The notes: a model not told the origin generated them from the sequence alone. A stretch of 64,000 bases of DNA from Myxococcales bacterium (GCA_023248595.1 JAHFEG010000005.1:19134-83133); one strand, 5' to 3'. Counted from the stretch's first letter, positions 1,945 to 40,218 are shown. Made by a program: numbers and translations.

Positions 1945-2436
1945 ATGCGCATTATCATGGTTGCTTTTGCTTTTTTCGTTATTCTTAGCTCAGGTATTTC
2001 TTACGCAGGAATATCTCAGGCGTTTTTGTTTAAAGGGGCGCAAGAAAACAATTTACACTTGATGACCCGAGGGCTTGCCCTGGGCGCTTCATTAACAGCA
2101 AGGACCGGGGTTTGGAGATGGGCAGCTTTGCATGTGGCTGCCAGCAAAAACAATGTGCTAGGAATAGAGCTGCTATTGAGGGCTGGGGCTGATTTGAATA
2201 TAAAAGATGCCGCCGGCTGGACTCCGCTTCACGTAGCGGCTCATTATGGATGCAAAGAAACCGTGGCATATCTTTTGTCCCAAGGTGCTGATATTTATGG
2301 AACTAATGCAACAGGGCGGACCGCTTGGAGTGTTGCCAACCACCAAGGTTTTCCAGAAATTAAAGAACTGATAGAATATTATGGCAAAGTCTACGACAAT
2401 AATTACTATGCACCACTGTTATGGGGCAATAATTAA
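1945..2436 (+). CDS. secreted ankyrin-repeat protein
   Basis: N-terminal signal peptide MRIIMVAFAFFVILSSGISYAG. ANK motifs present (LHVAASKNNVLGIELLLRAGADLN, TPLHVAAHYGCKETVAYLLSQGAD). Confidence 0.85.
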   Translation: MRIIMVAFAFFVILSSGISYAGISQAFLFKGAQENNLHLMTRGLALGASLTARTGVWRWAALHVAASKNNVLGIELLLRAGADLNIKDAAGWTPLHVAAHYGCKETVAYLLSQGADIYGTNATGRTAWSVANHQGFPEIKELIEYYGKVYDNNYYAPLLWGNN

Positions 2437-2547
2437 TCAGAATTGTGAGTATTGGGCTGCTTTTTGAACTGCCCCCCTTTTCTTTTCAAATTACTTTGGT
2501 AGCCTGGCAGGTTCATTTTGGTCAAATAAAAAAGGAAAAGTGAATAT

Positions 2548-3696
2548 ATGTCTAAAACACTTTCTGCCGGTATTGCAATGTTTGCCATGCTTTTTGGCGC
2601 TGGCAATGTCGTGTTTTCATTGGCATTAGGCCGCGATATGGGAGACATGGTTTGGTGGGCGATTGGCGGATTTTGTTTGACGGCAGTGCTTGTTCCTTTG
2701 GTGGGTCTAGTTTCCACAATATTGTACGATGGTGATTACGAGGCTTTTTTAGGCCGCATCGGTGTGATTCCGGGTGCTCTTGTTGCCTTTACCTGCTTAA
2801 TTCTGATTGGTCCATTCGGGGCAATTCCCCGCTGCATTACCACTTCATATGCTGCGATTAAGTGGTATTTTCCTGGATTTACCCTGGCATATTTTAGTGT
2901 GATGGCTGTTATTATCATTTTCTTGTTTACGTTTAGACAAAACAATGTGGTGGACTTAATCGGTAAGTTTCTAGGACCTCTAAAGCTGGCTTTGTTATTT
3001 TCCATTATTGTGGTTGGGCTTTTTTGGATGAGCGGCACCCCCTCTACTATCGATATTACACCTTCTTCGGCTTTGCTAAAAGGCGTTGTGGAGGGTTATG
3101 GAACAATGGATTTGCTCGGAACCATTTTCTTCGCCGGCCTGATTATTGGTAGCCTTAAAAAAGACATGGATCCTGAAAATCCAAATTATAAATTGCTAGC
3201 AATTCAAGGTTTTAAGGCAGGACTAATTGGCGCCTTTTTGCTGACCATTGTTTACACGGGTTTTTGTTTAGTTGCCTCTTTCCATGGACCGAGTGTCGCA
3301 GATGTCGATCGTTATGAGTTGCTGAATGCTTTGGCGCCTTTCATCTTGGGTCCTCAAGGTGGCATGTTAACCAATGCCGCGGTGGCCATGTCCTGCTTGG
3401 TAACTGCCATTGCGTTGACAACAGTGTTTGCGCAATACTTGCATCGGGTCCTCTTAAAAGAACGCGTGAGTTATGTAACAGCTCTGTTTATGACCGTGAT
3501 TGCCAGCGGATTAATGACGAACTTGGGTTTTAAGGGCATCATGGCCTTTATTGCTCCGATGGTAATCGCTTGTTATCCAGCCATGATCGTACTGGTGCTT
3601 TTCAACTTGGGCCACAAGCTTTTTGGAATCAAACTGGTTCGCGTGCCTGTATTTGCTACATTTGCAGTCACTTTAATCGCACAGTTTATGATTTAA
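2548..3696 (+). CDS. brnQ: branched-chain amino acid transport system II carrier protein
   Basis: Polytopic membrane protein. The N-terminal FAMLFGAGNVVF motif is typical of the BrnQ/LIVCS family. At 382 aa it is somewhat short. Confidence 0.8.
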   Translation: MSKTLSAGIAMFAMLFGAGNVVFSLALGRDMGDMVWWAIGGFCLTAVLVPLVGLVSTILYDGDYEAFLGRIGVIPGALVAFTCLILIGPFGAIPRCITTSYAAIKWYFPGFTLAYFSVMAVIIIFLFTFRQNNVVDLIGKFLGPLKLALLFSIIVVGLFWMSGTPSTIDITPSSALLKGVVEGYGTMDLLGTIFFAGLIIGSLKKDMDPENPNYKLLAIQGFKAGLIGAFLLTIVYTGFCLVASFHGPSVADVDRYELLNALAPFILGPQGGMLTNAAVAMSCLVTAIALTTVFAQYLHRVLLKERVSYVTALFMTVIASGLMTNLGFKGIMAFIAPMVIACYPAMIVLVLFNLGHKLFGIKLVRVPVFATFAVTLIAQFMI

Positions 3697-3712
3697 AAAA
3701 GGTCTAGCCTAT

Positions 3713-3758
3713 AAAAAACAGCCCCATGCCATCGGAAATACGCACGCCGTGCAGGGGC
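3713..3758 (-). terminator. probable Rho-independent terminator of the SCP2 gene
   Basis: On the minus strand, GCCCC(T)GC...GCATGGGGC forms a stem and is followed by TGTTTTTT. Confidence 0.5.
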
Positions 3759-3783
3759 AGACGAAGCTTGGTTACTCAATTAG

Positions 3784-4101
3784 CTATGATAAGAGTGATT
3801 GTAGTTTCAGTGCGAGCGCCATGTCGCCTTTCACCTTAATCTTTCCTTGCATGAAAGCCATGGTTGGATTCATTTTTCCGCTTGCCAATGAAACCCAATC
3901 TTCACCCTTGGCAATGGTAATGGTGCATTGAGCATCCTTATCATCTTGGGTGATCCAGTCTGCTTTCTTGGTGAGATCAACGTGCCATTTGCCTCCTCCG
4001 TCACCACCAATGTTGAATAAAAAACTGGCGTTAATTTTCTGTGCTTTTTCTGGGGTTAAACGTTGCTTCATATCTTCAAAAACTTGATTGACTGTCGACA
4101 T
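3784..4101 (-). CDS. SCP2 sterol-carrier domain protein
   Basis: MNPTMAFMQGKIKVKGDMALALKLQSLL is a typical SCP-2 C-terminal motif. Length is 105 aa. Confidence 0.8.
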   Translation of the reverse strand: MSTVNQVFEDMKQRLTPEKAQKINASFLFNIGGDGGGKWHVDLTKKADWITQDDKDAQCTITIAKGEDWVSLASGKMNPTMAFMQGKIKVKGDMALALKLQSLLS

Positions 4102-4172
4102 GTAGTTACCTCATAGATGGGTTTGGAGTAGATTTTGCAGAACTTTTAATGAATGTCAAAGATAAATTCTGA

Positions 4173-4191
4173 TCTTTGGAACGTGCATGCT
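4173..4191. repeat. 19-bp direct repeat, left copy (duplicate of the ilvE 3' end)
   Basis: TCTTTGGAACGTGCATGCT is identical to 6565..6583. Confidence 0.85.
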
Positions 4192-4295
4192 GCATTGTTC
4201 TGGTCAATATCAGGAAGAGACCAAACGCAGTTTTTTTGGGAAACCACCGTCCTGCATGTTATCATTGAGACATCCGATACTTCACAGGGGGGGAT

Positions 4296-6515
4296 ATGGT
4301 TATCCGTCGCGAAGGAAATCTGCCACATGTAGGCGCTAATCATGAAGCAGCGCCAGAGCAACCACCAAGACACGAAGCTGAAGATCTCGAGATAGCTGAT
4401 GGGTTTGTTAAAGCCATACCCAAAGCGCCAGCGCCAGGCTTAGCATTAACTGAAGCATTGAAAAGCAAGGACCTTGTGCTTGCCAAGACCTTGATTGCAG
4501 CAGGGGCACGTCTAAATGGTGAAGAAAAGGATATGGCCGGCCAGGAATTGGTCAAAGAATTAGCTGATGAGAACGCAGAGTTTGCGAAGATCTTAATTGC
4601 AGCAGGGGCCAACCCTAATTGTCTGGATAGCTCTGGTGCCGTCGCATTGCATTATGCGGAAGATCCAGAGATAGCGCAGGCATTGATTGCGGCCGGGGCA
4701 AATTTGGAGTTGAAAGATCAATTCGGCTACACTCCATTAAGTCAAGCGCTGATGCTTAAGTATAGCGAGCTTGCAAAACTTTTTTTGGATAATGGGGCAA
4801 GTGTAACTAAGGAAAACTTAGAAACATTGCTACACCCCGAGCAAGAATCCTTACTTGACTCCTTAGACGATGCAACACTGGAGCGTATTCTCAAAACGCC
4901 CCAAGATGGGAACGGCAACACTTTATTGCATAACAGGAACCTCGATCAGAAGCTTAAAGAGCTTGTGATTGCCCGGGGCATTGATACCAGCACCTGGGTT
5001 AATGCCGAGGGTTTTAGTCCCGAGGACACCCAGAAGGATTTATCGGCAAATTGGTTGACGACCCCCAAGAGCCAAGGATCAGCTGCGCCCGCGCTGACAC
5101 GAATAGAATATGATGCGCAGGCTCAAACGTTAGAAACTGATCTGAAATCTTTGTGGGATAAGGCTATAGGGGAAACTCCGGCAGATAAATTGCCTGTCCT
5201 TTTGCAAGTCAGTGGTCAAAATCATAGCAAAGATGATATTTTTGGGGCAATCAATAGGATCTTAACCAAGGTCAAAAGCCAACAAGCCTGGTTGGGAACA
5301 CCGCGCGCTGACCAGCTCGACATTATGCATAATTTTTACAATGAAATGCTGCATAACTTAAATACCGCCAGCCAAAACCTTAAAAATAAACCAGCAAATG
5401 AGGTCATAGGGCATCTCGTCAGTATCGCTTTACCCGAAATCGAAGGGCGCTGTGCCACTGCTTATCAACAAGAATTCAAACAGCAGGCGGGGTTTTTGAG
5501 TGGGTCACCAGAAGCACTTTCTACCGATGGACAAGTCAAAGCGGCAGCAAACTCTGCCTTGTTATCCCTGGTGGAAAAAATTACGAGCGAACAACATGGG
5601 TCGGATGTCCATTTCTTGGCGGGTTATCAACTAGCTGCAGGTCTTTCTTCTATCCCCGACCCACTATCTCATATAAATCCAGAAACAGCGGGGCAAAACT
5701 TGCGGGCGAGTTTCGATCCCATTTCTTTCACAAAAGACTTCAGCAATCACGTATCCAGGGAGACCGCAACCGATTGGCTTAAAGAGCAAACACCGGCTGA
5801 AGCATTGCCTGAATATCTGGAGCTTAAAAAAGCTGTGGCCGTCAAAGAAAATAATCTGGATGAGAACACCAAAGCCCAGCTTGCAGAAAATGGCATGGAT
5901 GGGGAAAAAACTTTTGAGCTGCTCACCAGCAGAATTTTGCGCGCCGCTAAGCTGGCAGATGCTGCCGCAGGTGAACCCATCACTTCGCAAAATATAGCCA
6001 AAAGTATGCTGCAAAAAACCTTTGGCGTTGCATTCGCAAAAGAAATTCCTACAGAAATCTTGGCACTTTTTTCTGAAAAAGAATTTTCGCAATTTCGGGA
6101 CGCCCTAAAAGAGTTTGTGCAAAGCCGTATTGATCTATTAAGCAGCCCACAGAAAATATCTTTGCGGAGTTGGATCAGTAGTCCGCAGCCCTTATTCGAT
6201 CGCTTGCGTGCGGCGCTGACATTCAATGCTGAGGCGACCAAATTGAATTTTTCGCCCGAACAAAAAACAAAATTTTTGAGTCTGCAAAAAGAATATGAGC
6301 ATAGCATGCAGAAGTTCGCCGATGATTTAGACGCACAGGCTGAGGAGGAAGGCAAAGAATCCGATGTTTCCTATCAAACATCTGCCGGCAGCGTATCAAA
6401 CGCCATCGAAGATGCTCGCCTTCTCAAGTACAACGAGGATGTTTTACAAAAGCCAACGCAAGCCCTGATGATTGCAGTACTCAAAAAGTTTGGTGCTTTG
6501 GGGGTGCCGGCTTAA
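4296..6515 (+). CDS. large ankyrin-repeat protein (739 aa) with an uncharacterised C-terminal region
   Basis: The N-terminal third has ANK repeats (LIAAGARLNG, LIAAGANPNCLDSSGAVALHYA, LIAAGANLELKDQFGYTPL). No signal peptide is apparent. I do not recognise the remaining roughly 500 aa. Confidence 0.8.
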   Translation: MVIRREGNLPHVGANHEAAPEQPPRHEAEDLEIADGFVKAIPKAPAPGLALTEALKSKDLVLAKTLIAAGARLNGEEKDMAGQELVKELADENAEFAKILIAAGANPNCLDSSGAVALHYAEDPEIAQALIAAGANLELKDQFGYTPLSQALMLKYSELAKLFLDNGASVTKENLETLLHPEQESLLDSLDDATLERILKTPQDGNGNTLLHNRNLDQKLKELVIARGIDTSTWVNAEGFSPEDTQKDLSANWLTTPKSQGSAAPALTRIEYDAQAQTLETDLKSLWDKAIGETPADKLPVLLQVSGQNHSKDDIFGAINRILTKVKSQQAWLGTPRADQLDIMHNFYNEMLHNLNTASQNLKNKPANEVIGHLVSIALPEIEGRCATAYQQEFKQQAGFLSGSPEALSTDGQVKAAANSALLSLVEKITSEQHGSDVHFLAGYQLAAGLSSIPDPLSHINPETAGQNLRASFDPISFTKDFSNHVSRETATDWLKEQTPAEALPEYLELKKAVAVKENNLDENTKAQLAENGMDGEKTFELLTSRILRAAKLADAAAGEPITSQNIAKSMLQKTFGVAFAKEIPTEILALFSEKEFSQFRDALKEFVQSRIDLLSSPQKISLRSWISSPQPLFDRLRAALTFNAEATKLNFSPEQKTKFLSLQKEYEHSMQKFADDLDAQAEEEGKESDVSYQTSAGSVSNAIEDARLLKYNEDVLQKPTQALMIAVLKKFGALGVPA

Positions 6516-6536
6516 CTTTAAGAGCTTAAACTCAGG

Positions 6537-7478
6537 TTAAACTAACATAAACTCGGTGATCCATTCTTTGGAACGTGCATGCTTCATATCAATCACATCG
6601 TTGAAAAGTTGATTGGCGCGATGATAGAATGGACCCGGCTGTCCGTGATTTTTATTTCCGATAACCCGGCCATCGACAGATTCAACAAAAGTGACTTGAG
6701 CTGCGCTGCCGGTCAGAAATAATTCATCACACGTATAAACCATAGAACGATCGATGATGTCAAAATCAACCGGGATACCATCATCGTTTAACAAATCGAT
6801 AATCGTACGCATGGTAACGCCCTCTAAAGGACCGGATCCGATATGCGGTGTGACCACGCGATTTCGATAAACCACAAACAAATTAGCCACACTGGCTTCC
6901 ACAATGTTGCCAAGGTCGTCCATCATGAGCGCTTCATCGTAGCCGTTGCGTCTGGCTTCAGAAGTTGCCAATGCGGAATTCAAATAACAGCCACTCGCTT
7001 TGGCTTTGGTAGAAATAGAAGCATCCGAAAATTTTTTCCGACTCGAAACCATGAGGCGCAAACCGCCAGATTTTTTAAAATACTGATTAAGCGGCATCAT
7101 ATAAACAGCAAAAAAGAAAGAGCGTTCGTCCATGCATGGCCCTAAAATTTCATCGTCAGAAAATATAAAGGGTCGGATGTAAAAGTCAGAACTCGGAGCA
7201 TTGGCCTTAATTACATCTGCAATAATTGTTTCAAATGCTTGAAAGGTCATCTCAAAATTAAAGCCTAAAATTTTACAAGCATTCATTAAGCGTTCGTGGT
7301 GATCTTCGAGTCTGAGCACGCGTGCTACGCCTTGGCGATGGTAACCGCGCATCCCACCAAAACACATGGTACCGTACTGCAAACTGTGGCTAGCAATACT
7401 GACACAAGCTTTCTCGTTGGGTACAATGGCATCGCGAAAATAAGCAAATGGCATCATGGACTTAATAGGTACATTCAT
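6537..7478 (-). CDS. ilvE: branched-chain amino acid aminotransferase (class IV aminotransferase)
   Basis: 313 aa with class IV aminotransferase-like sequence throughout (e.g. EASVANLFVV, LTGSAAQVTFVESVDGR). Confidence 0.85.
   Translation of the reverse strand: MNVPIKSMMPFAYFRDAIVPNEKACVSIASHSLQYGTMCFGGMRGYHRQGVARVLRLEDHHERLMNACKILGFNFEMTFQAFETIIADVIKANAPSSDFYIRPFIFSDDEILGPCMDERSFFFAVYMMPLNQYFKKSGGLRLMVSSRKKFSDASISTKAKASGCYLNSALATSEARRNGYDEALMMDDLGNIVEASVANLFVVYRNRVVTPHIGSGPLEGVTMRTIIDLLNDDGIPVDFDIIDRSMVYTCDELFLTGSAAQVTFVESVDGRVIGNKNHGQPGPFYHRANQLFNDVIDMKHARSKEWITEFMLV
6565..6583. repeat. 19-bp direct repeat, right copy (inside the ilvE 3' end)
   Basis: TCTTTGGAACGTGCATGCT is identical to 4173..4191. 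Confidence 0.85.
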
Positions 7479-7539
7479 GTCTTACCTAATAAGATGGTTG
7501 CGAAAATTTGTCATTCCTTAAATAGTTTCTTTTTATCAC

Positions 7540-7559
7540 CATTTGCCAAACTTAAAGCT
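7540..7559. repeat. 20-bp copy of the opu upstream region
   Basis: CATTTGCCAAACTTAAAGCT matches 10326..10345 at 19 of 20 positions. Confidence 0.6.
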
Positions 7560-7641
7560 AAACGTTTTGGAAGGGCTGACACCGTTTCCAAGAGAGTCTT
7601 AATGCGTGGCAAATGGCTGGAAAATTCTACTCAACTCTCTC

Positions 7642-8736
7642 TCACGAGTAAAGATTGGGGCCAAGAAACTGTGCACGGCCAGGACCTCCCTTGCCATCAT
7701 CTTCAGGGTCCGGGTAGTATTTCAGCGGTCTCTTAGGGGACGTGAAAAAGTATCCAAAAGTCAGAAACTTGAAAATTGCCCGTTTTATGTTCGTGATCCA
7801 GCCAGCATTGTTAGCGGCGTCACGATCAATAAGAAATTGATCTAGCGCAGGATTACTGAAAAGATCAGCATAGTGTAGCGGGGTGCTGCCAACATTGTTA
7901 GCTGCGCCAACCTCGGCGCCTTCCTCCAAAAGAAGTTGAACTACCTCAGGATGCCCGGATTGAGTAGCATCGTGCAGTGGGGTGCTGCCAGCATCGTTAG
8001 CTGCGCTAACCTCGGCGTCATGATCAACAAGAAGTTGAACTACCTCAGGATGCCCGGATTGAGTAGCATCGTGCAGTGGGGTGCTGCCAGCATAGTTAGC
8101 TGCGCTAACCGCGGCGTCATGATCAACAAGAAGTTGAACTACCTCAGGATGCCCGGATTGAGTAGCATCGTGCAGTGGGGTGTTGCCAGCATAGTTAGCT
8201 GCGCTAACCGCGGCGTCATGATCAACAAGAAGTTGAACTACCTCAGGATGCCCTTGTAGAGCAGCCAAGTGTGATGGGGTGTTGCCAGCCTTGTTAGCTG
8301 CGCTAACCTCGGCGTCATGATCAACAAGAAGTTGAACTACCGCAAGATGTCCGGAAAGAGCAGCCTCGTGTAGCGGGGTGTTGCCAGCCTTGTTAGCTGC
8401 GTTAACCTCGGCGCCATGAACAATAAGAAATTTAACTAGCGCAGGATCTCCGAAAAGAGCAGCCTCGTGTAGCGGGGTGTTGCCAGCCTTGTTAGCTATG
8501 CTAACCCAGGCGCCTTCCTCCAAAAGAAGTTTAATTACCGCAAGATGTCCGGAAAGAGCAGCATAGTGTAGCGGGGTGTTGCCAACACAGTTAACTGCGT
8601 TAACCGCGGCGCCTTCTTCCCCCAAAAGAAGTTTAACTACCGCAAAACGTCCGGAGTGAGCAACATAGTGTAGCCTGCCTGAAAGTACGACGGGTGAAAA
8701 ACAAAGGAGCGCGACAAAAAATGATTTATTAAACAT
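7642..8736 (-). CDS. secreted ankyrin-repeat protein (about 9 ANK repeats)
   Basis: Signal peptide MFNKSFFVALLCFSPVVLSG. GNTPLH(D/E)A...GH.EVVQLLVDHDA.V repeats every 33 aa. Confidence 0.9.
   Translation of the reverse strand: MFNKSFFVALLCFSPVVLSGRLHYVAHSGRFAVVKLLLGEEGAAVNAVNCVGNTPLHYAALSGHLAVIKLLLEEGAWVSIANKAGNTPLHEAALFGDPALVKFLIVHGAEVNAANKAGNTPLHEAALSGHLAVVQLLVDHDAEVSAANKAGNTPSHLAALQGHPEVVQLLVDHDAAVSAANYAGNTPLHDATQSGHPEVVQLLVDHDAAVSAANYAGSTPLHDATQSGHPEVVQLLVDHDAEVSAANDAGSTPLHDATQSGHPEVVQLLLEEGAEVGAANNVGSTPLHYADLFSNPALDQFLIDRDAANNAGWITNIKRAIFKFLTFGYFFTSPKRPLKYYPDPEDDGKGGPGRAQFLGPNLYS
7931..8227. repeat. three near-identical 99-bp tandem units inside the ankyrin gene
   Basis: Units start at 7931, 8030 and 8129. 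By hand alignment neighbouring units differ at only 1-2 positions. More diverged units continue to about 8640. Confidence 0.9.
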
Positions 8737-8902
8737 GTGTTACCTTTCCGCGGCTTGCGGGGGATTTATTGCAATAAAGTATTCGAATTAAACATTGGAA
8801 ACACTGTATAGTGCTTGCTTGCTGATTTGTCAACAAGTGACGCATGTTTGAGGCGTCTAAAGTAATTTTACGAGAAAAGAGGCAGCTTGATCTTGCACCC
8901 GT

Positions 8903-9047
8903 TTCCCGGCTTGCCTAAAAGTCCAAAATCTAATGCGTTCCTATACTGTAAATATATCGATGCCAGTTACTTTCGCTTCTTTAAAAAACAATGATCCGGA
9001 TGTTTTTTTTAGGAAATTGGATGCCTGCCCAAGAAACCGACATCAGA
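8903..9047 (+). pseudogene. duplicated, internally deleted fragment of the opu promoter and 5' coding region
   Basis: 8903..8954 matches 10346..10397 and 8955..9047 matches 10594..10686, with 2 substitutions and 1 T indel. The missing 196 bp is bounded by the microhomology CTGTAATTAT / CTGTATTAT. Confidence 0.7.
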
Positions 9048-9066
9048 AACCTGAAGAGCAAAGGGT

Positions 9067-10215: not shown

Positions 10216-10325
10216 AACCAGACTCTATCATGAAAATTGAACAAGGTCCGTTCAAATTTCACAAAAAATCGTAGCCGTTTGTTTTTAAAGCAAAAATTTT
10301 AGTGATGAGTAAACAATTTTATAAG

Positions 10326-10345
10326 CATTTGCCAAACTTGAAGCT
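10326..10345. repeat. 20-bp opu upstream sequence (presumed original copy)
   Basis: CATTTGCCAAACTTGAAGCT. See 7540..7559. Confidence 0.6.
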
Positions 10346-29606: not shown

Positions 29607-29629
29607 GATCAAGACGAGAAAGTCCCAAA

Positions 29630-32088: not shown

Positions 32089-32117
32089 AACATGAACTAA
32101 CTTTCGTTTTTCGAAGG
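32089..32117 (+). repeat. cassette-boundary direct repeat, copy 2
   Basis: AACATGAACTAACTTTCGTTTTTCGAAGG matches copy 1 at 28 of 29 positions and starts immediately after the Sel1 stop codon. Confidence 0.9.
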
Positions 32118-32139
32118 GCAGAAATTTTTAAGAGGGCTT

Positions 32140-32853: not shown

Positions 32854-32875
32854 TCGAGAACTTCCCAAATAGAGA

Positions 32876-32905
32876 AACGTCGAGCTTACTTTCGTTTTTC
32901 GATGG
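32876..32905 (+). repeat. cassette-boundary direct repeat, copy 3 (degenerate)
   Basis: AACGTCGAGCTTACTTTCGTTTTTCGATGG. The core ACTTTCGTTTTTCGA is intact at 32888..32902. Confidence 0.75.
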
Positions 32906-32943
32906 ATGCTCTAATTTGCACTGAATGGACAGCTAAAATAAAC

Positions 32944-32971
32944 TTGACAATATCTGCAATTTTGATAATAT
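32944..32971 (+). promoter_or_regulatory. candidate sigma70-type promoter of hipBA
   Basis: TTGACA (32944-49), 16-nt spacer, TAATAT (32966-71). The hipB ATG at 32979 sits about 7 nt after the -10 box, so the transcript may be leaderless. Confidence 0.4.
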
Positions 32972-32978
32972 ATATCTT

Positions 32979-33314
32979 ATGTCAAAAGCGCCTGCTGCTC
33001 TTTCTTCCATGCCACCTGTCGCTTTAGAAGCCCTAAAACGACTAGGTGAAGATCTGGCTATTGCAAGGGTGCGTCGCCGAGAATCACAACGGGTATGGAG
33101 CCAGCGTTTAGGTGTCTCCGTTCCCACACTCATCCGATTAGAACAAGGCGATCCTGGGGTCAGTATGGGTATTTACGCAACCGCTTTGTGGCTCATCAGC
33201 CGCACACCGGCACTTGCACAATTGGCCGACCCTCAACATGACCGCGGAGCCTTAGAACTTGATATCCGAAAAGCCCTTCGACAACACACACGCAGGAAGA
33301 GAAGGCATGACTAA
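32979..33314 (+). CDS. hipB: XRE-family HTH antitoxin (HipB-like)
   Basis: HTH segment SQRVWSQRLGVSVPTLIRLEQGDPGVSMG. Overlaps the downstream hipA start. Confidence 0.8.
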   Translation: MSKAPAALSSMPPVALEALKRLGEDLAIARVRRRESQRVWSQRLGVSVPTLIRLEQGDPGVSMGIYATALWLISRTPALAQLADPQHDRGALELDIRKALRQHTRRKRRHD

Positions 33315-34536
33315 AAATTGTTACCAACCTGTCGACCAGCTGTTTCTCTGGATGCTAACTGAGCCCACAAAGCCCATATTGATTGGCGAGCTCAACATGG
33401 TTCGCCACGTACGCGGTGTCTCGCTACGTTATGAACAGTCATGGAGAGAAAACGGATTTGCTTTAAGTGAAGATTTACCTCTAGAAGGCCAAGACGAATT
33501 TTTTCCAACTGTGCAAGATACAGCCGTGGGAGCTATCGATGACGCAAGACCCGATCGTTGGGGTGAACGCGTGATTAGGCTTATCGATAAACCGCTAAGG
33601 CTGTCCCTGATGGAATACCTATATTTCGCCGGAGATAATCGATTTGGAGCCCTCGGTGTTTCTCTCTCCAGAGATAAATATGAACCTTGCGACAAAAATC
33701 CACTGCCATTTTTAAGCGATATTGAGACAATTGAACAACTGGTTCAAAAAGTGCTGGCCAATGAGCCTATCCCTGAGGAGCAAAAACGACTCATCTCTGC
33801 AGGTGTCAGCATGGGTGGAGTTAAACCTAAAGCGTTGCTTAATATTCAGGGTGAGCCTTGGGTGGTTAAGTTTTCCGATGGTGACCCAATCGATACTCCC
33901 TTAATAGAACATGCTTCCATGACACTCGCTGCTTTGGCAGGCATTCGAGTGGCCGAGACAAAAACGATTCGCATGAACTACGGTCACGCGGTTGCCATCA
34001 AACGCTTTGATCGCATCAAGAACCAGCGTGTACACACTCTTTCCGCTTATGTGGCATTGAAAGCAGCAGCCGAGCCATTTGGCTACCCTGAATTAGCCTT
34101 GCTTTTACGACGACGTGGACCTAGTAAAAACAGTACTAATTTAAAACACATGCACGAACTATTTCGCCGCATGGTATTCAATATTTTGATTGATAATACC
34201 GACGATCATGAAAAAAATCATGCGCTCTTGGTTAATGCAGAACAAGAATATGAATTATCACCTGCTTACGACATACTGCCTTCTGGGCAAGCGTTGGGTT
34301 ACCAACAAATGCGTGTCGGCACAGAACAGGCAGACTCTACAATCACTAATGCTCTATCGCAGTGCGAACTATTTTCCTTAAGTCAAGAAGAGGCCAGAGC
34401 AGAAACTCTTAGAGTCATCAAAGTCATTAATACTTGGAAAGAACACTTTAAAGCCTGTGGCGCTTCCCCCCGTGATATTGAAATGCTCGAAGAACAAATT
34501 GATAGGCCGTTCTTGAAACAACAAAGACAAACATGA
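33307..34536 (+). CDS. hipA: HipA-family serine/threonine kinase toxin
   Basis: DDARPDRWG and NILIDNTDDHEKNHALL motifs. ATG at 33307 overlaps the hipB stop by 8 nt. Confidence 0.85.
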   Translation: MTKNCYQPVDQLFLWMLTEPTKPILIGELNMVRHVRGVSLRYEQSWRENGFALSEDLPLEGQDEFFPTVQDTAVGAIDDARPDRWGERVIRLIDKPLRLSLMEYLYFAGDNRFGALGVSLSRDKYEPCDKNPLPFLSDIETIEQLVQKVLANEPIPEEQKRLISAGVSMGGVKPKALLNIQGEPWVVKFSDGDPIDTPLIEHASMTLAALAGIRVAETKTIRMNYGHAVAIKRFDRIKNQRVHTLSAYVALKAAAEPFGYPELALLLRRRGPSKNSTNLKHMHELFRRMVFNILIDNTDDHEKNHALLVNAEQEYELSPAYDILPSGQALGYQQMRVGTEQADSTITNALSQCELFSLSQEEARAETLRVIKVINTWKEHFKACGASPRDIEMLEEQIDRPFLKQQRQT

Positions 34537-34558
34537 GCTAACTTTCGTTTTTCGAAAA
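34530..34558 (+). repeat. cassette-boundary direct repeat, copy 4
   Basis: AACATGAGCTAACTTTCGTTTTTCGAAAA. It contains the hipA stop codon (34534-36). Confidence 0.9.
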
Positions 34559-34561
34559 AGC

Positions 34562-35095
34562 TTATCTTGTTAGCTCTTCCCAATTTTGCTTTGCAATTTT
34601 AGCTGCATCGCCCTGTAAGATAGGTGCTGTAAAAATTCCGCCTATTAAAGGAGCGCTATCTTCAAATTCGATTCTTCCCTTTACAATGTAGTTATCGTAT
34701 TCAAAATTCTTAAGAGAAGCCACCTTGCTTAATTTGTCAACGTTGACACCTTCCGATTGTGTCCGCACCCAGAAATTAATAATATTTCCTTTATTATCAA
34801 AAGTCATAAATAAGCTATCATGTTTTTTAAAGGCATCTATAATTTTATCTTTTTGCATGATATTGAAATCATTTAAGTCGCGTCCCGGATCAATGCTGAT
34901 CCAGGTCATCATGACATGGATTAATCTTAAATCCGCACCGCTTTCGTCTTTTTTGTCTTCAATGTATGAAAAGATTGTCCCATCTGGGTTAAATGAGAAA
35001 TTTTTTAGATTGCTTTCGAACTGTACGCTGCCAAATTGGCAAGATGAGCCAAGTGTGGTCAAGAAAAAAAGAACGGCGACAAGTTTTTTCAGCAT
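34562..35095 (-). CDS. hypothetical lipoprotein
   Basis: Signal/lipobox MLKKLVAVLFFLTTLGSSC. I recognise no domain. Confidence 0.6.
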   Translation of the reverse strand: MLKKLVAVLFFLTTLGSSCQFGSVQFESNLKNFSFNPDGTIFSYIEDKKDESGADLRLIHVMMTWISIDPGRDLNDFNIMQKDKIIDAFKKHDSLFMTFDNKGNIINFWVRTQSEGVNVDKLSKVASLKNFEYDNYIVKGRIEFEDSAPLIGGIFTAPILQGDAAKIAKQNWEELTR

Positions 35096-35191
35096 AAGCT
35101 TTAAGTTTCCTTTTAAGGATACCAATTTTTAAGTATTGTGTTGACCGTACCAAATCGTTTATCATGTTCCTGTTTAAACAACTAGTTACTT

Positions 35192-37255
35192 ATGGATATT
35201 ATGAATAAGAAATTTCGCCACCAGTCAAAATCACAACAAGAATCAACTTTGATTGAAGGCATTGCCAGAAGAAATCCGAAAGGTTTTGGTTGGCTAGAAA
35301 CAGACAACGCAAGAAGAGAAGGCATTTTCATACCGCCACGCGAAATGATGTTGCTGATGGACGGTGACAAAGTTCGTTGTCGTCTCGAACCCAATCCTAA
35401 GGGGCCTGTCGCCTACATTGAGCAAATTATTGAGCATGCCAAAGCAGTTGTGATTGGTACGTTTTACAGAAAAAAACGAGATGAAATTGTTGAAACACAA
35501 GGACAAGCACTTGCTTCTCCTGTCGTGATTCCTCCCCAATTTAGAAACGACACTCGTTTAATTGACAACGGTACTTTGGTGGAAATTGAGATTACCAGAT
35601 ATCCGGGTAAAGGTCTTCAAGCAGAAGGTCGCGTCGTGCGCGTGCTTGGAAAGCAAGGCGACTTCGTCTCAGAAGTTGAAGTGCTGTTATCACAAAGTAA
35701 AGCATTGCGTAGCTTTACACCTGCTGCTCACATGCAAGCCCATACGTTTGGAGAAAATCCTAGCCCTCAAGACATGAAGAATCGACGTGATTTAACCAGC
35801 GTCGCGCTTTGTACTATTGATGGCGAGACTGCCAAAGATTTCGATGACGCCGTTTATGCTTGTTATGAAGGTGATGCCATTTGGGTAACTGTGGCGATTG
35901 CCGACGTGAGCCATTATGTTGCTCCTGGTTCTGCTATTGATGTAGAGGCATTTGCCAGAGGCACGAGTATTTATTATCCGGGACATTGTATCCCCATGAT
36001 TCCTGAAGAATTATCTAACGGTTTATGCTCATTGAAACCAAATGTTCCTCGTTTGTGCATGATTGTGGAAATGTTGATAACAAAATCTGGTGCGATTAAA
36101 AAAGTACAATTCGACGAAGCGGTTATGCATAGCCAGGCACGCTTAACTTACAATCAAGTGCAAGCATACGTCGATGGTGACTTTAAAGCCATGCGTGAAA
36201 TTCCAGAACAAGTTGGAAAAAGTCTTCAAGTGCTTTGGAGTGCTAGTCGTGCCTTGCGTAAGGCGCGGCAAAAACGTGGTGCGCTTGATTTTGATGCGGC
36301 TGAAAGTGTGGTCGCTCTCGATGATTCTGGCGAACCCATTGCAATTAATCCTATACTAAGGCTAGAAGCGCATCGAATGATTGAAGATTTAATGGTTGCC
36401 GCCAATGAATCAGTTGCTCAGCATTTAGAAAAGAAGGGTTGGCCTACCATTTTTCGTATTCACGAAGAGCCGCAGGCTGAAAAGTTAAAAGCATTCTTAA
36501 CGCTTGCTCAAAGCATGGGCGCTATTTCTCCTGCAGATGTGAAAGAATTGCAAAGAGAAAAAATAGAACCAAAAGCTTTGGCTAAAATCATTGAGCGTTT
36601 TCAAGATCATCCGGCCAAAGGCGCATTGGATACGTTAATGCTACGTTCCATGATGCAGGCGCGCTACAGTGCCGAAAATGTAGGACACTTCGGACTTGCT
36701 TCTAAAAGTTATTTGCATTTTACTTCGCCTATTCGTCGTTATCCAGATTTGAGTGCGCATCGTGTTTTGCGTCTTTCGATGCTTCGTAAAAAGAAGCTGA
36801 GTGAAAGCGAAACCATTGCCATGACTGAAGAAATGGAAAAGATAGCAGCACAGTGTAGCGAAAAAGAACGAAAAGCTGTTGAATTGGAGCGGCAAATCAA
36901 TTCGTTGCATGCGGCTTGGGTCATGCAAGACAAAGTTGGTGAAGAAGATATAGGGACCATCACAAGCTGTACAGACTTTGGTTTATTTGTCAGACTTTCT
37001 AAGTACCACGTCGAAGGATTGGTGCATGTTGCTCACTTGAGCAAAGAACATATGCATTTTGATGCAGATCAAATGCGATTGGTTGAAAAAAGTACGGGAC
37101 GAAGTTTCAAAATCGGCGATAAGCTAAAAGTACGCGTTTTGTCGGTTAACGTGGCGAAGCGCTTTATTGATTTAGGGCCAGTCCTTGGAAAAGATCAACC
37201 AAAGGAAAAAGATCGTGGAAAAAAAAGCAGAGGGCGATCACGTCGAAAGTCATAA
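35192..37255 (+). CDS. rnr: ribonuclease R
   Basis: RNB domain (DFDDAV, HFGL, YLHFTSPIRRYPD), C-terminal S1 domain and a basic tail. Confidence 0.93.
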   Translation: MDIMNKKFRHQSKSQQESTLIEGIARRNPKGFGWLETDNARREGIFIPPREMMLLMDGDKVRCRLEPNPKGPVAYIEQIIEHAKAVVIGTFYRKKRDEIVETQGQALASPVVIPPQFRNDTRLIDNGTLVEIEITRYPGKGLQAEGRVVRVLGKQGDFVSEVEVLLSQSKALRSFTPAAHMQAHTFGENPSPQDMKNRRDLTSVALCTIDGETAKDFDDAVYACYEGDAIWVTVAIADVSHYVAPGSAIDVEAFARGTSIYYPGHCIPMIPEELSNGLCSLKPNVPRLCMIVEMLITKSGAIKKVQFDEAVMHSQARLTYNQVQAYVDGDFKAMREIPEQVGKSLQVLWSASRALRKARQKRGALDFDAAESVVALDDSGEPIAINPILRLEAHRMIEDLMVAANESVAQHLEKKGWPTIFRIHEEPQAEKLKAFLTLAQSMGAISPADVKELQREKIEPKALAKIIERFQDHPAKGALDTLMLRSMMQARYSAENVGHFGLASKSYLHFTSPIRRYPDLSAHRVLRLSMLRKKKLSESETIAMTEEMEKIAAQCSEKERKAVELERQINSLHAAWVMQDKVGEEDIGTITSCTDFGLFVRLSKYHVEGLVHVAHLSKEHMHFDADQMRLVEKSTGRSFKIGDKLKVRVLSVNVAKRFIDLGPVLGKDQPKEKDRGKKSRGRSRRKS

Positions 37256-37322
37256 AAATGCTGGCCCGCTTTGGGCCGATTTACATGCTGAGTCCCATTG
37301 TCTTATTTCTGATGAAAATTTA

Positions 37323-37970
37323 ATGGCTGGCGATGAGCAAACTGAGCCCGGCATGGTGGCTTGTGAAGAAGTAAGCGTTCTCGCCACCGAAGTCGTCATG
37401 CCCCCGGAGTTGTTATGCCAGCCCAGGCACGAAAAAGACAAAAACCCCAAACTGAAAATAGGAATGGCCGTCATGATCATGATGGGTATTGGTGTATGGT
37501 CATGGATTTTAACAAAAAATCACAAAGGGGCACCGCTTAGCTCTAGAGAAGTTCAAGTGCAAATTGCTGGCCAAACATTAATGGATAGCACGCCGGTTCT
37601 ATTGCCCATGAAAATGATTCAAGAAAAGGTAGTTTTTCATGTCGATATTAATCAAAGACTACGCGAAACGCTTCGCTATATGAATTTAGGAAGGCAGGCA
37701 TTAAAAGAACGATACATGGCAAAAGCCATCGAAAATTTCGTACGGGCAAAGCAAATTTTAAATGGTCTTCCATACACGAAAGCAAATTTTTTGCACAGTG
37801 AACTTAATGCGTTGCATGCCAATGCTCTTTACTGGCAGGGATTTTTAGCTTTGCAAAAAGAGAATCAGTGTCAGGCTAAAGCCTACTTCGTCGGGGCGCA
37901 AGTCATGGCGCCTCACGATCGAAAAATTCAGGATCGCCTCAAGGAAATTTCACCGTCATTAAGATGTTAA
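37323..37970 (+). CDS. hypothetical single-pass membrane protein with a TPR-like C-terminus
   Basis: TM segment IGMAVMIMMGIGVWSWIL. The start is uncertain: the ORF opens at 37185, overlapping rnr. Confidence 0.5.
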   Translation: MAGDEQTEPGMVACEEVSVLATEVVMPPELLCQPRHEKDKNPKLKIGMAVMIMMGIGVWSWILTKNHKGAPLSSREVQVQIAGQTLMDSTPVLLPMKMIQEKVVFHVDINQRLRETLRYMNLGRQALKERYMAKAIENFVRAKQILNGLPYTKANFLHSELNALHANALYWQGFLALQKENQCQAKAYFVGAQVMAPHDRKIQDRLKEISPSLRC

Positions 37971-38015
37971 AAATTGATAAAACCGTTCGGCTTTTCCATT
38001 AGATGCAAAAAATTG
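37963..38015. repeat. 53-bp perfect direct repeat, left copy (duplicate of the CYTH gene 3' end)
   Basis: GATGTTAAAAATTGATAAAACCGTTCGGCTTTTCCATTAGATGCAAAAAATTG is identical to 39515..39567. Confidence 0.92.
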
Positions 38016-38377
38016 AGATAGTGCCTATGTTTTTTTTAATGCTTTGGTTTGGAGCTTGCCCAACAACGAGCTCAGTAAAAATTTTACCCGTAACCGAATG
38101 AGCCTCCCAGGTATTTAAAGGTGAGCCGGCGGAAATTCTTCCGATTGCAAAAATGGAAGGTTTGTTGGTGCTATAGACAGTCGGACCAAACCCAACCATG
38201 ACAAATGAAACAATACGCAGAGAACTTACCCAGAAAGCCTTAATCGTCAGTGCTATATCAACCAAGAGACAGTGTTAGCAAACCACCGCATTGTTTTTAA
38301 GTGTTGCATTTCGAAGTTGACTTGGCCATATTATTCCGAGTAGAAGTGTTTTATTAAAATTACACAAGGAGTATCAG

Positions 38378-38917
38378 ATGAAAACAAATACCACGTTGTT
38401 TGTTTTTTTAATGAGTTTAAGTATGTCCTTTAGTAATAATGTAGCTGCAACTATAACCGGAACCTATAGGTATGAACATAGTAGCTTGTCTGGTGGCTGC
38501 AACGCTGGCGCTAAGGAGCAGTTATTAAAAACTGCCCAGCAAGAAGCTATAAGGACATGTCAAGGCCACCATGGTACGGTTACAAATATTGGTTCTATGT
38601 ATAAAGAAGGCGGTGCCGTAAATGCGAAAACTTGCATTATCTTTGGTATATATGATTGTTCCACCAACAATAAACCAAAAAGCTGGTATGGGTGTAGTAA
38701 CTGCAAAACCAACACAGATAGAGAATCAGAATTAAACAATAAAACTGGTGGATTTAGTAGAAGCGTTCCTGCGTTACCAGAAAATGCTGCATGGAATGAT
38801 TTATGCACTGCTATGGGAAAGAAATGCATAACAGTTATTGATTGGAAAGGAACTACACAAGGTTGTGAAAGTTGGGCGTTGGATGGTAGCCGTGCTGTAT
38901 TATGCGAAGATCTATAA
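38378..38917 (+). CDS. secreted cysteine-rich protein
   Basis: AAGGAG Shine-Dalgarno sequence, signal peptide MKTNTTLFVFLMSLSMSFSNNVAA, and 11 Cys in the mature part. I recognise no family. Confidence 0.7.
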   Translation: MKTNTTLFVFLMSLSMSFSNNVAATITGTYRYEHSSLSGGCNAGAKEQLLKTAQQEAIRTCQGHHGTVTNIGSMYKEGGAVNAKTCIIFGIYDCSTNNKPKSWYGCSNCKTNTDRESELNNKTGGFSRSVPALPENAAWNDLCTAMGKKCITVIDWKGTTQGCESWALDGSRAVLCEDL

Positions 38918-38967
38918 TCAACTTTTTTCAGTAAAGTTAAGGATTAAATTTATATGACGAATAAAAA

Positions 38968-38998
38968 GACCAACATTTTGTTGGCCTTTTTTTTAATG
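38968..38998 (+). terminator. possible Rho-independent terminator
   Basis: GACCAAC-ATTTT-GTTGGCC stem-loop followed by T8. Confidence 0.45.
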
Positions 38999-39019
38999 CC
39001 GTAAAAATGTAGGCAGCTT

Positions 39020-39124
39020 TCAGCGTCGTCCTTTTTTACCTCGTGGGTCATCCACGACCTCAAGCGGCAATTCTTTGAGACGCTTGTGCAAAACGCCATA
39101 AGCCGGTCTGTTATTTCCAGTCAT
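39020..39124 (-). pseudogene. possible N-terminal remnant of an ISAs1/IS4-like (DDE_Tnp_1-associated) transposase
   Basis: The 34-codon ORF MTGNNRPAYGVLHKRLKELPLEVVDDPRGKKGRR* recalls the ..DPR..GKRH.L motif. The reading continues as KLPTFL after the stop. Recognised from memory only. Confidence 0.3.
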
Positions 39125-39507
39125 TCATTTTTTCTTCCTTAAATCACTTGTAAATTCGACGACCAGAAAGCATTATAACCCTGGCCTTATTACGCTTTTA
39201 GTCACAACTGCGGGGGCTGCTAATGAACTGAACGAACCAGGAAAAGATATTTTCTTCTGCACAAAGGATTTAGAGTCTTTTCAATCGAGTCCCGCCTCTG
39301 TGACAGGTGGTAACAACGATAACCCTGGCACTGAGGATAGCATGCAGGTCCACTTCCCTCTGAACAATGATAAGCATAATGCTTTCAATCTTAGACATTG
39401 CTTTGTTGCTTTCGCAATGGTTGAGAAAATAGAGGGCTCTCTCGGCTGTTAGCAAGCGTTCTTGCCCCTAAAGTCGTCATGCCTGCGCTGGCATGACAAC
39501 AGAAAAT

Positions 39508-40218
39508 CTAAACCGATGTTAAAAATTGATAAAACCGTTCGGCTTTTCCATTAGATGCAAAAAATTGCGCATTGGCTTTTTGAAAAAGTTCGAGCAAAAA
39601 ATGTTCAGCATTTTGGTAGTGAAGGGACGTCGGGATTTCTAGTTCAACTTCATAGTGAATGATTTCTGATTTAAATGTTGTCTCATCCATTTCCAGTAAA
39701 AATTCATTTTGGGCAATTGCGACGGGAATGCAAGTGCGCTGATTGGTGAATGAACCAATCATTTGCAAAGGTTTGTTTGAGCTCAGAATACTAATCTGTT
39801 TACAGAGAAATTCTCGCGTTCTTATTTTTTTGGAATCATTGGCTGCTGACTGAGCAAGCAAGTAATCGAGTGGCGAGCACTTTTGTTCAAGCAATTGTCT
39901 GGCAATCGTTTCAGGAATGTCGTCTTCGTATTCTAACTTGATTGACATGCTTTTTTGATTTTTTGCTGCTTTGGGATCATTTCCTTTGATGCATAAAATA
40001 AAGCGATCGTTTTCATAGCGCAAACGTATCGCTAAAGAATTTGCTCTTAAAATGAGATCTGAGGTGTCAAAAAAATAATTATTTTGCTTAAGTAATAGAA
40101 AATCTTTGGCTTGGCTTATGCTCATTGCAGTTTCTTTCACGCGCTGAAATGTGTTTGCGTCATGGAAGCGGTATTTCAGTTCGATTTCTTGATGAAGTTC
40201 TTGATGCAAATGGGGCAT
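39508..40218 (-). CDS. CYTH domain protein (CyaB/thiamine triphosphatase-like)
   Basis: N-terminal EIELKYRF (ExExK) signature. 236 aa. Confidence 0.75.
   Translation of the reverse strand: MPHLHQELHQEIELKYRFHDANTFQRVKETAMSISQAKDFLLLKQNNYFFDTSDLILRANSLAIRLRYENDRFILCIKGNDPKAAKNQKSMSIKLEYEDDIPETIARQLLEQKCSPLDYLLAQSAANDSKKIRTREFLCKQISILSSNKPLQMIGSFTNQRTCIPVAIAQNEFLLEMDETTFKSEIIHYEVELEIPTSLHYQNAEHFLLELFQKANAQFFASNGKAERFYQFLTSV
39515..39567. repeat. 53-bp perfect direct repeat, right copy (inside the CYTH gene 3' end)
   Basis: Identical to 37963..38015. It encodes ..QFFASNGKAERFYQFLTS. Confidence 0.92.

Follow-up and report, generated by a model that had tools for sequence, protein, structure and literature searches.

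The genome analysed here carries short accessory segments at the extreme ends of core genes, bounded by direct repeats that copy the terminus of the adjacent core gene and so leave that gene whole. Approximately 15–20 such terminus-duplication islets were found genome-wide in 2.0 Mb, holding one to three accessory genes in inserts of about 0.75–3 kb. In the window (the whole stretch of 64,000 nt that was analysed), they lie at the 3′ ends of ilvE, rlmM and a CYTH-domain gene and at the promoter and 5′ end of opu; sites outside it include tRNA 3′ ends (three islets) and the 3′ end of an icd-like gene. The initial annotation had recognised a single logic in the four window loci, with repeat sequences that are distinct at each, and both points hold; the four repeat sets are present where it had placed them and are far beyond chance. 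The host is a small uncultured freshwater bacterium, represented by a 61-contig MAG of 2.0 Mb with a coding fraction of 92 %.

The features at ilvE (locus L1) are:
4150–4195, − strand: distal copy of the ilvE 3′ end, consisting of T′ and a degenerate relic e′ (4150–4172); from repeat comparison and strains X4 and X11
4296–6515, + strand: cargo, 739-aa ankyrin-repeat protein (Pfam Ank_2)
6537–7478, − strand: ilvE, class IV aminotransferase, the target gene; the repeated terminus is its last 51 nt, 6537–6587

The ilvE direct repeat noted earlier is present in this genome (G000), where 4173–4195 and 6565–6587 are identical at 22 of 23 positions, a match for which the estimated chance expectation within 6 kb is ~0.01 per genome. 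It is longer in the sister strain X11, where an intact ilvE end directly precedes T′ and the repeat covers at least 51 nt from the stop codon. Strain X4 lacks 4173–6536, and with it the ankyrin gene, the missing segment beginning exactly at 4173. The 739-aa protein has one paralogue, 47 % identical, on contig C16.

The features at opu (L2) are:
7531–7559, + strand: old opu upstream pseudo-copy, part A0, 26/29 identical to 10317–10345
7642–8736, − strand: 364-aa ankyrin protein with eight 99-nt repeats, inside the old opu pseudo-copy (Pfam and repeat comparison)
8903–9047, + strand: old opu 5′ pseudo-copy, part A1, matching 10345–10396 and 10594–10685
9067–10215, − strand: cargo, 382-aa AAA_14 and DUF4143 (PD-(D/E)XK-fold) ATPase (Pfam)
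10317–10685, + strand: functional copy B, opu promoter region and first 93 codons, start codon at 10407

Region 10317–10685 recurs as 7531–7559 plus 8903–9047, and these copies bracket the ATPase gene. What had been described as a repeat of the opu promoter is thus a genuine duplication, but it extends through the first 93 codons of opu, which truly begins at 10407. The 197 nt that carry the start codon and signal peptide have been lost from part A1 of the older copy. The end of A0 and the start of A1 map to one position in copy B, 10345. The ankyrin gene between them has no bounding repeat of its own, a correction to the initial annotation, and sits within the old pseudo-copy. Its insertion without duplication indicates that more than one route may operate. 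The ATPase unit is ~1.27 kb long, with the stop codon 19 nt from the repeat, and DUF4143 has been assigned to the PD-(D/E)XK fold (PMC3424549).

The features at rlmM (L3) are:
29630–30562, + strand: rlmM-like FtsJ methyltransferase gene, the target; R1 at 30524–30553
30554–32117, + strand: cassette 1, Sel1-repeat protein (30613–32088) and R2 (32088–32117), R2 being 29/30 identical to R1
32118–32905, + strand: cassette 2, DUF3592 protein (32140–32853) and R3 (32876–32905), R3 being 23/30 identical to R1
32906–34558, + strand: cassette 3, hipB-like HTH gene (32979–33314), hipA (33259–34536) and R4 (34529–34558)

Four copies of 30 nt from the rlmM 3′ end (starting at 30524, 32088, 32876 and 34529) delimit this array, and a genome-wide search found none elsewhere. 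The first cassette supplies the last two codons and the stop codon of rlmM, the 9 nt after R3 resemble the rlmM stop region, and the hipA stop codon falls within R4. Depth over cassette 1 is near zero in strains X3, X4, X6 and X10. A contig of X6 joins 30555 to 32908, which is the exact R1-to-R3 spacing of 2352 nt, so that two cassettes are absent and rlmM with a single repeat is followed directly by hipBA, while in X4 and X10 other DNA follows 30549. When G000 was compared with the sister species G001, the hipA 3′ end and R4 were 94 % identical (222/236) and the gene after R4 76 % identical (435/572), with the break at R4 (p = 4e-6); hipBA has been exchanged across species, and R4 bounds the exchange. 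As the distal hipBA is common to G001 and the proximal Sel1 gene is missing in other strains, the order of the array fits entry beside the core gene.

The features at the CYTH gene (L4) are:
37963–38015, + strand: distal copy of the CYTH 3′ end, 53 nt, 100 % identical (repeat comparison)
38016–39450, + strand: cargo, Cys-rich secreted 179-aa protein (38378–38917) and non-coding DNA
39451–39514, + strand: segment m, a hairpin (MITE/REP-like) remnant, spacer and the last two CYTH codons
39508–40218, − strand: CYTH-domain gene, the target; proximal repeat 39515–39567

The first 8 nt of the distal copy double as the end of a 261-aa gene (37185–37970), and the left junction has an 8-nt microhomology, GATGTTAA. 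This cargo is absent from G001 and from the lake strain X3, in which 37962 is joined to 39515 and one 53-nt copy remains. At least 39481–39514 of segment m corresponds by homology to DNA beside the native CYTH gene of G001, though here it lies between both repeat copies; entry of a circle (T-m-K) at an X3-like site would explain this, a simple duplication of T would not. Parsimony requires two steps at L4 under single-crossover and staggered-break models alike. On contig C22, outside the window, G000 has 137 nt in duplicate (135/137 identical), beginning at a stop codon, and G001 has one copy, a clean empty site. The C22 cargo starts within a transposase gene fragment (IS3 type, 96 aa) that is a copy from another locus, and its start appears to be an arbitrary capture end-point.

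The initial annotation had suggested a genome scan and a strain comparison, and both showed the pattern it expected. Direct repeats scoring ≥18 flank 26 of the 1734 genes and inverted repeats flank 7; local pairs of ≥17 nt number 116 direct versus 16 inverted, the direct count including repeats within repeat-protein genes. The presence/absence polymorphism falls exactly at the repeat junctions of CYTH, ilvE, rlmM and C22. It is the variable genes that are bracketed, with 3 of 31 repeat-bracketed genes common to the sister species compared with 48 %. The outer repeat edge lies 0–9 nt from a gene terminus at C22, C33, C57, L3, L4, C60, C42 and, in strain X11, L1, and gene-to-repeat gaps within the units are 1–100 nt (1 nt and 10 nt on C60). 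Across the genome the cargo includes hipBA, abiE, a vapBC-like MazE–PIN pair, Fic, AAA_14/DUF4143, ankyrin, Sel1 and secreted proteins; the earlier claim of enrichment in eukaryote-like repeat proteins was overstated, since toxin–antitoxin, Fic and ATPase–nuclease modules dominate genome-wide. A 61-contig MAG, with an L1 repeat of just 23 nt, might be suspected of chance similarity, unrelated local tandem duplication or mis-assembly of a metagenome bin. This is very improbable, as the structure is 100 % identical in independent assemblies, direct repeats far exceed inverted ones, in data from three unrelated studies the polymorphic segments end at repeat edges, and similarity comparison found that the cargo resembles no neighbouring gene.

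Genes that could account for mobility were sought by several means. Pfam searches found no mobility genes in the four window loci, and a six-frame search that read through stops found no integrase remnants in the islets. In the whole genome, six-frame searches found no serine recombinase or resolvase, and the only tyrosine recombinases were XerC, XerD and one divergent 391-aa orphan on contig C4. The absence of an integrase in cis, as first annotated, is therefore confirmed, and transposase sequence in islet cargo is limited to the C22 fragment. Insertion of a transposon or IS was rejected for the window loci because the repeats are direct copies of the target of 19–370 nt, with no inverted termini and no transposase. 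No R or M genes were found in the scanned cargo, the nearest being the PD-(D/E)XK-fold DUF4143 ATPase.

Our preferred, though tentative, reading is that these micro-islands enter via a single crossover at a copy of the gene end that the cassette itself carries, the Campbell-type route put forward initially. A DNA segment that includes 23 to ~370 nt copied from the end of the target gene would circularise, and one Campbell or att-like crossover between the circle and the chromosomal terminus would restore the core gene and leave the displaced end copy beyond the cargo. Later cassettes entering beside the core gene would build arrays, recombination between repeats would delete or excise cassettes, and ordinary homologous recombination in the flanks would spread them among strains. 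The data show the repeats, their position at gene termini, the cassette-wise polymorphism, the G001 empty site, the lack of integrases and the enrichment of variable genes. Of these, the polymorphism, the empty site and the lack of a recombinase in cis count in favour of this reading, as do the hipBA exchange bounded by R4 and the arbitrary capture end-point at C22. The circle and the crossover we infer, preferring them on the basis of the L4 anatomy, the arrays with identical repeat edges and the location of repeat edges at gene termini; the recombination system may be general RecA-type recombination on short homology or a trans-acting enzyme. Against a single crossover, no circular form or crossover was observed, the public runs found all being assembled contigs, 23–53 nt is short for RecA-type events, the model gives no account of how a segment first acquires its gene-end copy, and a staggered-break duplication accounts just as well for L1 and for the clean 137-nt case on C22.

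In that alternative (Nobusato, Furuta), the strands would be cut 20–370 nt apart, foreign DNA ligated and the gaps repaired, with cargo nucleases such as the DUF4143 PD-(D/E)XK ATPase perhaps making the cuts. C22 is a textbook case, with one copy in G001 versus the doubled 137 nt in G000, and the repeats vary from 19 to ~370 nt with no common motif and no attC-like fold. All four AAA_14/DUF4143 genes in the genome lie within repeat-bracketed islets, three as single-gene units of 1.26–1.32 kb. In other genomes, direct repeats of 48–133 nt bracket 3 of 39 such genes, and solitary nuclease genes such as mcrA provide a precedent (PMC2853133). Yet non-specific cuts are not expected to double the same 30 nt thrice at rlmM or the C60 tRNA end, ancestral segment m lies between the L4 copies, edges cluster at gene termini although any spacer edge would be viable, and most cargo (Sel1, ankyrin, hipBA, abiE, Fic) has no DNA nuclease; we regard this origin as unlikely. 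It is likewise doubtful that the islets are relics or satellites of integrase elements, with repeats that are tyrosine-integrase att sites and an integrase that was lost or acts in trans from an unassembled element, following the logic of CIMEs or mobilisable islets. The tRNA 3′ ends do host three islets, the arrays look like tandem accretion on a single att site, and the recombinase on C4 is a candidate enzyme. A tRNA-Arg gene on C60 has three copies of one repeat, which starts 3 nt before the T arm, another on C42 has a repeat starting inside the 5′ anticodon stem, and both repeats end at CCA; these boundaries match the identity blocks typical of integrase att sites. Starts at such classical positions hint that a true site-specific enzyme acts on at least some of the loci. 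Yet many integrases would be needed to serve over 15 different att sequences, and no integrase remnant was found in any islet, nor any serine recombinase in the genome. The units are also too compact for decay products, and repeats of 137–370 nt exceed the usual length of att cores.

The repeats would be a selection filter and not a mechanism if transforming DNA had been inserted, illegitimately or with the help of homology, through two independent junctions and only gene-end-duplicating events survived in a genome with 92 % coding sequence. The variable repeat length, the L4 microhomology and the duplication-free insertion into the dispensable opu pseudo-copy agree with this, as do near-identical tracts of ≥2.7 kb in strains otherwise 4–7 % diverged, and most long-target-duplication cases are in competent species (Furuta et al. 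2010, PMC2853133). The ComEC gene is intact, but ComEC is nearly universal and no proof of competence. Neither the identical repeat edges in arrays nor edges at gene termini are predicted, and we consider this explanation quite improbable.

Though the route had initially been put forward as possibly undescribed, its outcome matches the 'insertion with long target duplication' that Kobayashi's group reported for restriction-modification (RM) genes, with no known mechanism (Nobusato 2000, Gene 259:99; Furuta, Abe and Kobayashi 2010, PMC2853133). Furuta et al. (2010) required direct repeats >30 bp that are single-copy at a relative's empty site, an insert <20 kb with no mobile element, and RM cargo. 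Single-copy empty sites were found for the C22 137 nt (G001), L4 53 nt (X3) and L3 30 nt (X6) repeats, the L1 repeat is below the 30-bp cut-off in G000 (23 nt) and at least 51 nt in X11, and inserts of 0.75–3 kb lie within the size limit and have no mobile element, but the cargo is not RM. Both phenomena involve small units with no transposase or integrase and direct repeats of tens to hundreds of nt, often spanning a start or stop codon so that the target gene is intact. The islets differ in their non-RM cargo, a far higher density (≥15 loci in 2 Mb), arrays of two or three cassettes on one repeat, and use of tRNA ends.

Like integron arrays and CALINs, the islets consist of compact, co-oriented single-gene units, mostly promoter-poor, each followed by a repeated site-like sequence, with the newest cassette adjoining the fixed end and toxin–antitoxin-rich, strain-variable content. 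An integron or CALIN was nevertheless rejected, as NCBIfam integron-integrase models scored far below cut-off (the best two tyrosine recombinases being XerD and XerC) and shuffled sequences fold at least as well as the repeats, with the exception of R4, which forms a terminator-like hairpin with downstream DNA. Unlike integron sites, islet repeats copy the local core-gene terminus and hence differ at every locus. CIMEs and tandem accretion are known at gene 3′-end att sites, as for ICESt1/ICESt3 in fda and e14/phage 21 in icd; there too the element brings a new end for the gene, segments with no integrase lie between direct repeats and successive elements use one repeat, and one of the sites here is likewise an icd-like 3′ end. 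Here, however, the assembly has no cognate integrase, the units are 0.75–2.4 kb versus several kb or more, and the sites are many. The minimal mobile elements of Neisseria, and integration hotspots lying between core genes, share with the islets alternative small gene sets between conserved flanks, homologous recombination in those flanks and a lack of mobility genes, but are not defined by duplicated gene termini or repeat-delimited cassettes.

What is new here is the density of islets, the arrays of up to three cassettes on one repeat, the cargo (hipBA, abiE, vapBC-like, Fic, ankyrin and Sel1) and the presence of all AAA_14/DUF4143 genes inside islets. More speculatively, and with little expectation that it will prove correct, the islets might represent an integrase-free, integron-like system in which any core-gene terminus could serve as attachment site and small gene-end circles would be captured, stacked and exchanged across species, with the AAA_14/DUF4143 ATPase–nuclease as a possible selfish engine, an autonomous single-gene element that would make breaks or long duplications.

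The window (C32:19134–83133) is part of a 1.99 Mb genome (G000) in 61 contigs, and the public runs containing its sequence are metagenomes from groundwater and lakes. The four repeat sets described in the initial annotation were all found in place, and they are as follows.

4173–4195 and 6565–6587: ilvE repeat, 22 of 23 nt identical, the latter copy within the last 51 nt of ilvE
6537–7478, minus strand: ilvE, the target gene of this repeat
10317–10685: opu repeat, copied as 7531–7559 and 8903–9047 around an AAA_14/DUF4143 ATPase gene (9067–10215, 382 aa)
rlmM 3′ end: 30 nt repeat, four copies (R1 to R4), found nowhere else in the genome
CYTH 3′ end: 53 nt repeat, identical copies around a Cys-rich 179 aa gene with a signal peptide

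The ilvE pair encloses an ankyrin gene (739 aa), and in a sister strain (X11) the repeat is at least 51 nt long and reaches the stop codon. The repeat described as an opu promoter is present but its extent had to be revised, as it covers the promoter and the first 93 codons of opu, which starts at 10407. The older opu copy is 197 nt short, and a 364 aa ankyrin gene has been inserted within this old pseudo-copy without a repeat of its own. The rlmM repeats mark the borders of the Sel1 (R1–R2), DUF3592 (R2–R3) and hipB-hipA (R3–R4) units. Mis-assembly is excluded because the junctions of the four loci are 100 % identical in independent assemblies.

Genome-wide, 116 pairs of local direct repeats (≥17 nt, spacing 300–6000 nt), a count that still includes repeats internal to repeat-protein genes, were found versus 16 inverted pairs. 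With within-gene repeats removed, approximately 15–20 loci have one to three genes bracketed by a copy of the neighbour's terminus (islets), and when all 1734 genes were tested uniformly, 26 had direct-repeat flanks and seven had inverted-repeat flanks.

Bracketed sites on other contigs
C60: tRNA-Arg, three repeat copies
C42: second tRNA-Arg site
C48: tRNA-Lys
C25: icd-like 3′ end
C22: 3′ end, 137 nt
C54 and C23: 5′ ends

Cargo of the bracketed loci
hipBA: one module
abiEi/abiEii: two pairs
MazE-PIN pair and ORF6N gene: one
Fic genes: two
AAA_28, glyoxalase, arginase-family gene: one each
opu-like ABC genes: one set
NfeD/SPFH: one pair
Secreted BNR/propeller proteins: present
Ankyrin and Sel1 proteins: present

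The link to variable genes, on which the initial annotation had staked its proposal, survives: a DNA homologue in the sister species (G001) exists for just 3 of the 31 bracketed genes, versus 48 % of other genes (p=1e-5). GC3 of the bracketed genes is slightly above that of other genes. At the icd-like site, the NfeD/SPFH cargo (C25:98193–99633; G001 K11:9995–11409) is 91 % identical between the two species and its flanks 72–86 %, an excess reflecting either strong constraint or recent exchange. Separately, two core segments that lie 50 nt apart in G001 (K24:8733–8783) are parted in G000 (C57:1–3221 with C37:14180–17283) by a wHTH-Fic-wHTH arrangement, a contig break and an abiE cassette, and this accretion is a compound hotspot.

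Contigs from other populations, 4–12 % diverged, were aligned to the window, and the predicted presence/absence polymorphism at the repeat junctions was observed at CYTH (X3), rlmM (X6) and ilvE (X4). In X3, 37962 is joined to 39515 with 53 nt in common, so that the cargo is gone and a single copy is left. In X6, 30555 is joined to 32908, the exact R1–R3 spacing, giving the order rlmM-R-hipBA, with neither the Sel1 nor the DUF3592 cassette; X4 and X10 have unrelated DNA beyond 30549. X4 also lacks 4173–6536, with 19 nt of other sequence in its place, the X12 sequence departs after 4172, and in X11 a whole ilvE end precedes the distal copy. An empty opu site was not found, as no joint was present in four further runs compared with 3600–11200. 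In X3, 32499–35162 (at least 2.7 kb) is 99–100 % identical to G000, other X3 genes are 93–96 % identical, and no X3 contig over 1–14000 reaches 99 %; this tract is evidence that the cassette region was recently exchanged laterally. The islets are real and mobile.

A joint in X1 (34222 to 30650) was considered as a circle junction and rejected; it coincides with a conserved HipA motif, has low depth and is treated as a contig from another organism. The 3′ part of rlmM (30337–30555) is 10–12 % diverged in X3, X4, X6 and X10, with alignments stopping upstream of 30337, and because this is far above the divergence of adjacent genes, rlmM evolves fast or recombines at this end. Differences among the R copies fall at third codon positions in 8 of 12 cases (p~0.02, the differences not being independent), which is only suggestive of an origin from diverged rlmM alleles; this test was limited to the R copies, mismatches at the other loci being too few.

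The entire G001 genome (1.085 Mb, 79 % nucleotide identity to G000) was also compared. The 137 nt segment duplicated on C22, where the duplication starts precisely at the stop codon, is single copy and without cargo in G001. The hipA 3′ end with R4 is 94 % identical between the species, versus 76 % for the adjoining gene (p=4e-6), the break in identity is the right edge of R4, and the G001 hipA is a truncated relic. Homology at the CYTH locus extends from CYTH to 39481, beyond the repeat edge at 39515, and hence the state in X3 is most parsimoniously a deletion between the 53 nt copies. The region of 1–14000 is absent from G001, leaving no outgroup for the ilvE and opu loci. Genome and metagenome contig collections yielded only distant rlmM-like matches (44–62 % amino acid identity), unusable for synteny, and an exact-protein look-up matched only 100 % identical contigs.

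Other features were noted nearby. A dispersed REP/MITE-like hairpin repeat, TTGTCATGCCAGCGCAGGCTGGCATC, lies at 37370–37419 and 39451–39500, with ~25 copies genome-wide (e.g. C34:6342, C57:20168), and G001 has a full 363 nt hairpin element with inverted ends between a 261 aa gene and CYTH, the position of the cargo in G000. Synteny breaks at 41705/48668, the counterpart of 48668–51965 adjoining that of 41705 on G001 contig C33. Three tandem ORFs of 84–90 aa (41776–42896, minus strand), with a 94 nt repeat at 400 nt spacing (41984/42384), form a small tandem gene family.

The tyrosine recombinases of G000, in a six-frame search reading through stops, are XerD, XerC and a divergent 391 aa protein on C4 (6570–7745). 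The same search revealed no integrase relics in any islet, in agreement with the initial annotation that integrase is absent in cis, and decayed islands were rejected on this basis. No serine recombinase was found in a search of the genome. An integron was rejected, as IntI is absent and attC-like folding of the repeats was not found, nor do the loci qualify as transposons. A single site common to all loci was likewise rejected, the repeats sharing no motif on inspection by eye. The ComEC gene is intact, offering weak support for DNA uptake. A wHTH (HTH_36) family of 250–300 aa has 23 paralogues at ~57–85 % identity, often at contig ends (e.g. C25:83582–84433, C37:14213–14974, C37:16529–17272, C34:7410–8282); two copies flank a Fic gene in a composite-element-like arrangement, and the family may be an unrecognised insertion-sequence-like element.

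Two formal models, a circle with a single crossover and a long staggered break followed by fill-in, have an identical end product. We tentatively favour the crossover, at somewhat under even probability, whereby a circle bearing a copy of the gene end would recombine once at the chromosomal terminus, in att or Campbell fashion. It is favoured because arrays reuse a single site with identical repeat edges (four copies at rlmM, three at tRNA-Arg) and because at eight sites the gene terminus and the outer repeat edge are 0–9 nt apart, where a duplication could stop anywhere in the spacer. At CYTH, the DNA between the copies includes 39481–39514, the native CYTH neighbour in G001; a circle carrying the repeat, the segment 39451–39514 and the cargo, on entering an X3-like site, would leave this segment between the copies, an outcome that simple duplication would not yield. 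The C22 cargo begins inside an IS3-type transposase gene fragment copied from another locus, which also favours the crossover and would fit arbitrary excision end-points. Strict staggered-break duplication is thus considered unlikely.

Several points count against the crossover. The circular form is one that we only infer, 23–53 nt is short for RecA, and no account is given of how a gene-end copy was first gained. The tRNA repeats start at the T arm or anticodon stem, classical positions of integrase sites, and so speak for islands of the integrase type, against which stands the lack of integrase relics in the six-frame search; an origin as integrase relics or satellites is considered about as unlikely as the strict staggered break. 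One insertion, the 364 aa ankyrin gene, lacks any duplication; illegitimate insertion filtered by selection is a further reading, though a distinctly improbable one.

All four AAA_14/DUF4143 paralogues in G000 (mutual identity 25–30 %) are inside repeat-bracketed islets, three of them single-gene units of 1.26–1.32 kb with the stop codon 0–19 nt from the repeat. DUF4143 has a PD-(D/E)XK fold (PMC3424549). The gene is highly multicopy in family-level relatives with 1.5–2.4 Mb genomes (22 copies in G004, 11–13 in G016, G018 and G012). In other genomes, from a set of 300, 3 of 39 evaluable DUF4143 genes were flanked by direct repeats of 48–133 nt, one a tRNA end, versus none or one with inverted-repeat flanks, an effect that is real but modest and pertains to this family alone. 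Its presence in islets recalls the connection to nucleases already published for long target duplication, though most G000 islets are without a nuclease. COG1373 (AAA_14 plus DUF4143) is a concrete candidate gene family for tests of how genomes lacking integrases can still take up and lose accessory genes.

Though an undescribed gene-capture route was initially proposed, the loci match a published, mechanistically unsolved kind, sharing the structure of the 'insertion with long target duplication' (PMC2853133) but not its RM cargo. Furuta, Abe and Kobayashi (PMC2853133) and Nobusato et al. noted that the repeats frequently cover start or stop codons, such that the target gene is kept intact, and left the mechanism open while suspecting double-strand breaks. 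The question of mechanism dates from 2000 and was previously tied to restriction enzymes. New in G000 are the high density, the stacked arrays and the quite different cargo, in which eukaryote-like repeat proteins occur beside Fic, toxin-antitoxin and ATPase-nuclease genes; natural strains differ by entire cassettes. The same architecture with different cargo, the arrays and the cassette-wise strain differences indicate a process that is general, ongoing and independent of restriction enzymes. The several lake and groundwater populations provide a tractable natural system for the question of how small integrase-less genomes acquire and shed accessory genes and genes for host interaction while their tightly packed core genes remain unharmed.
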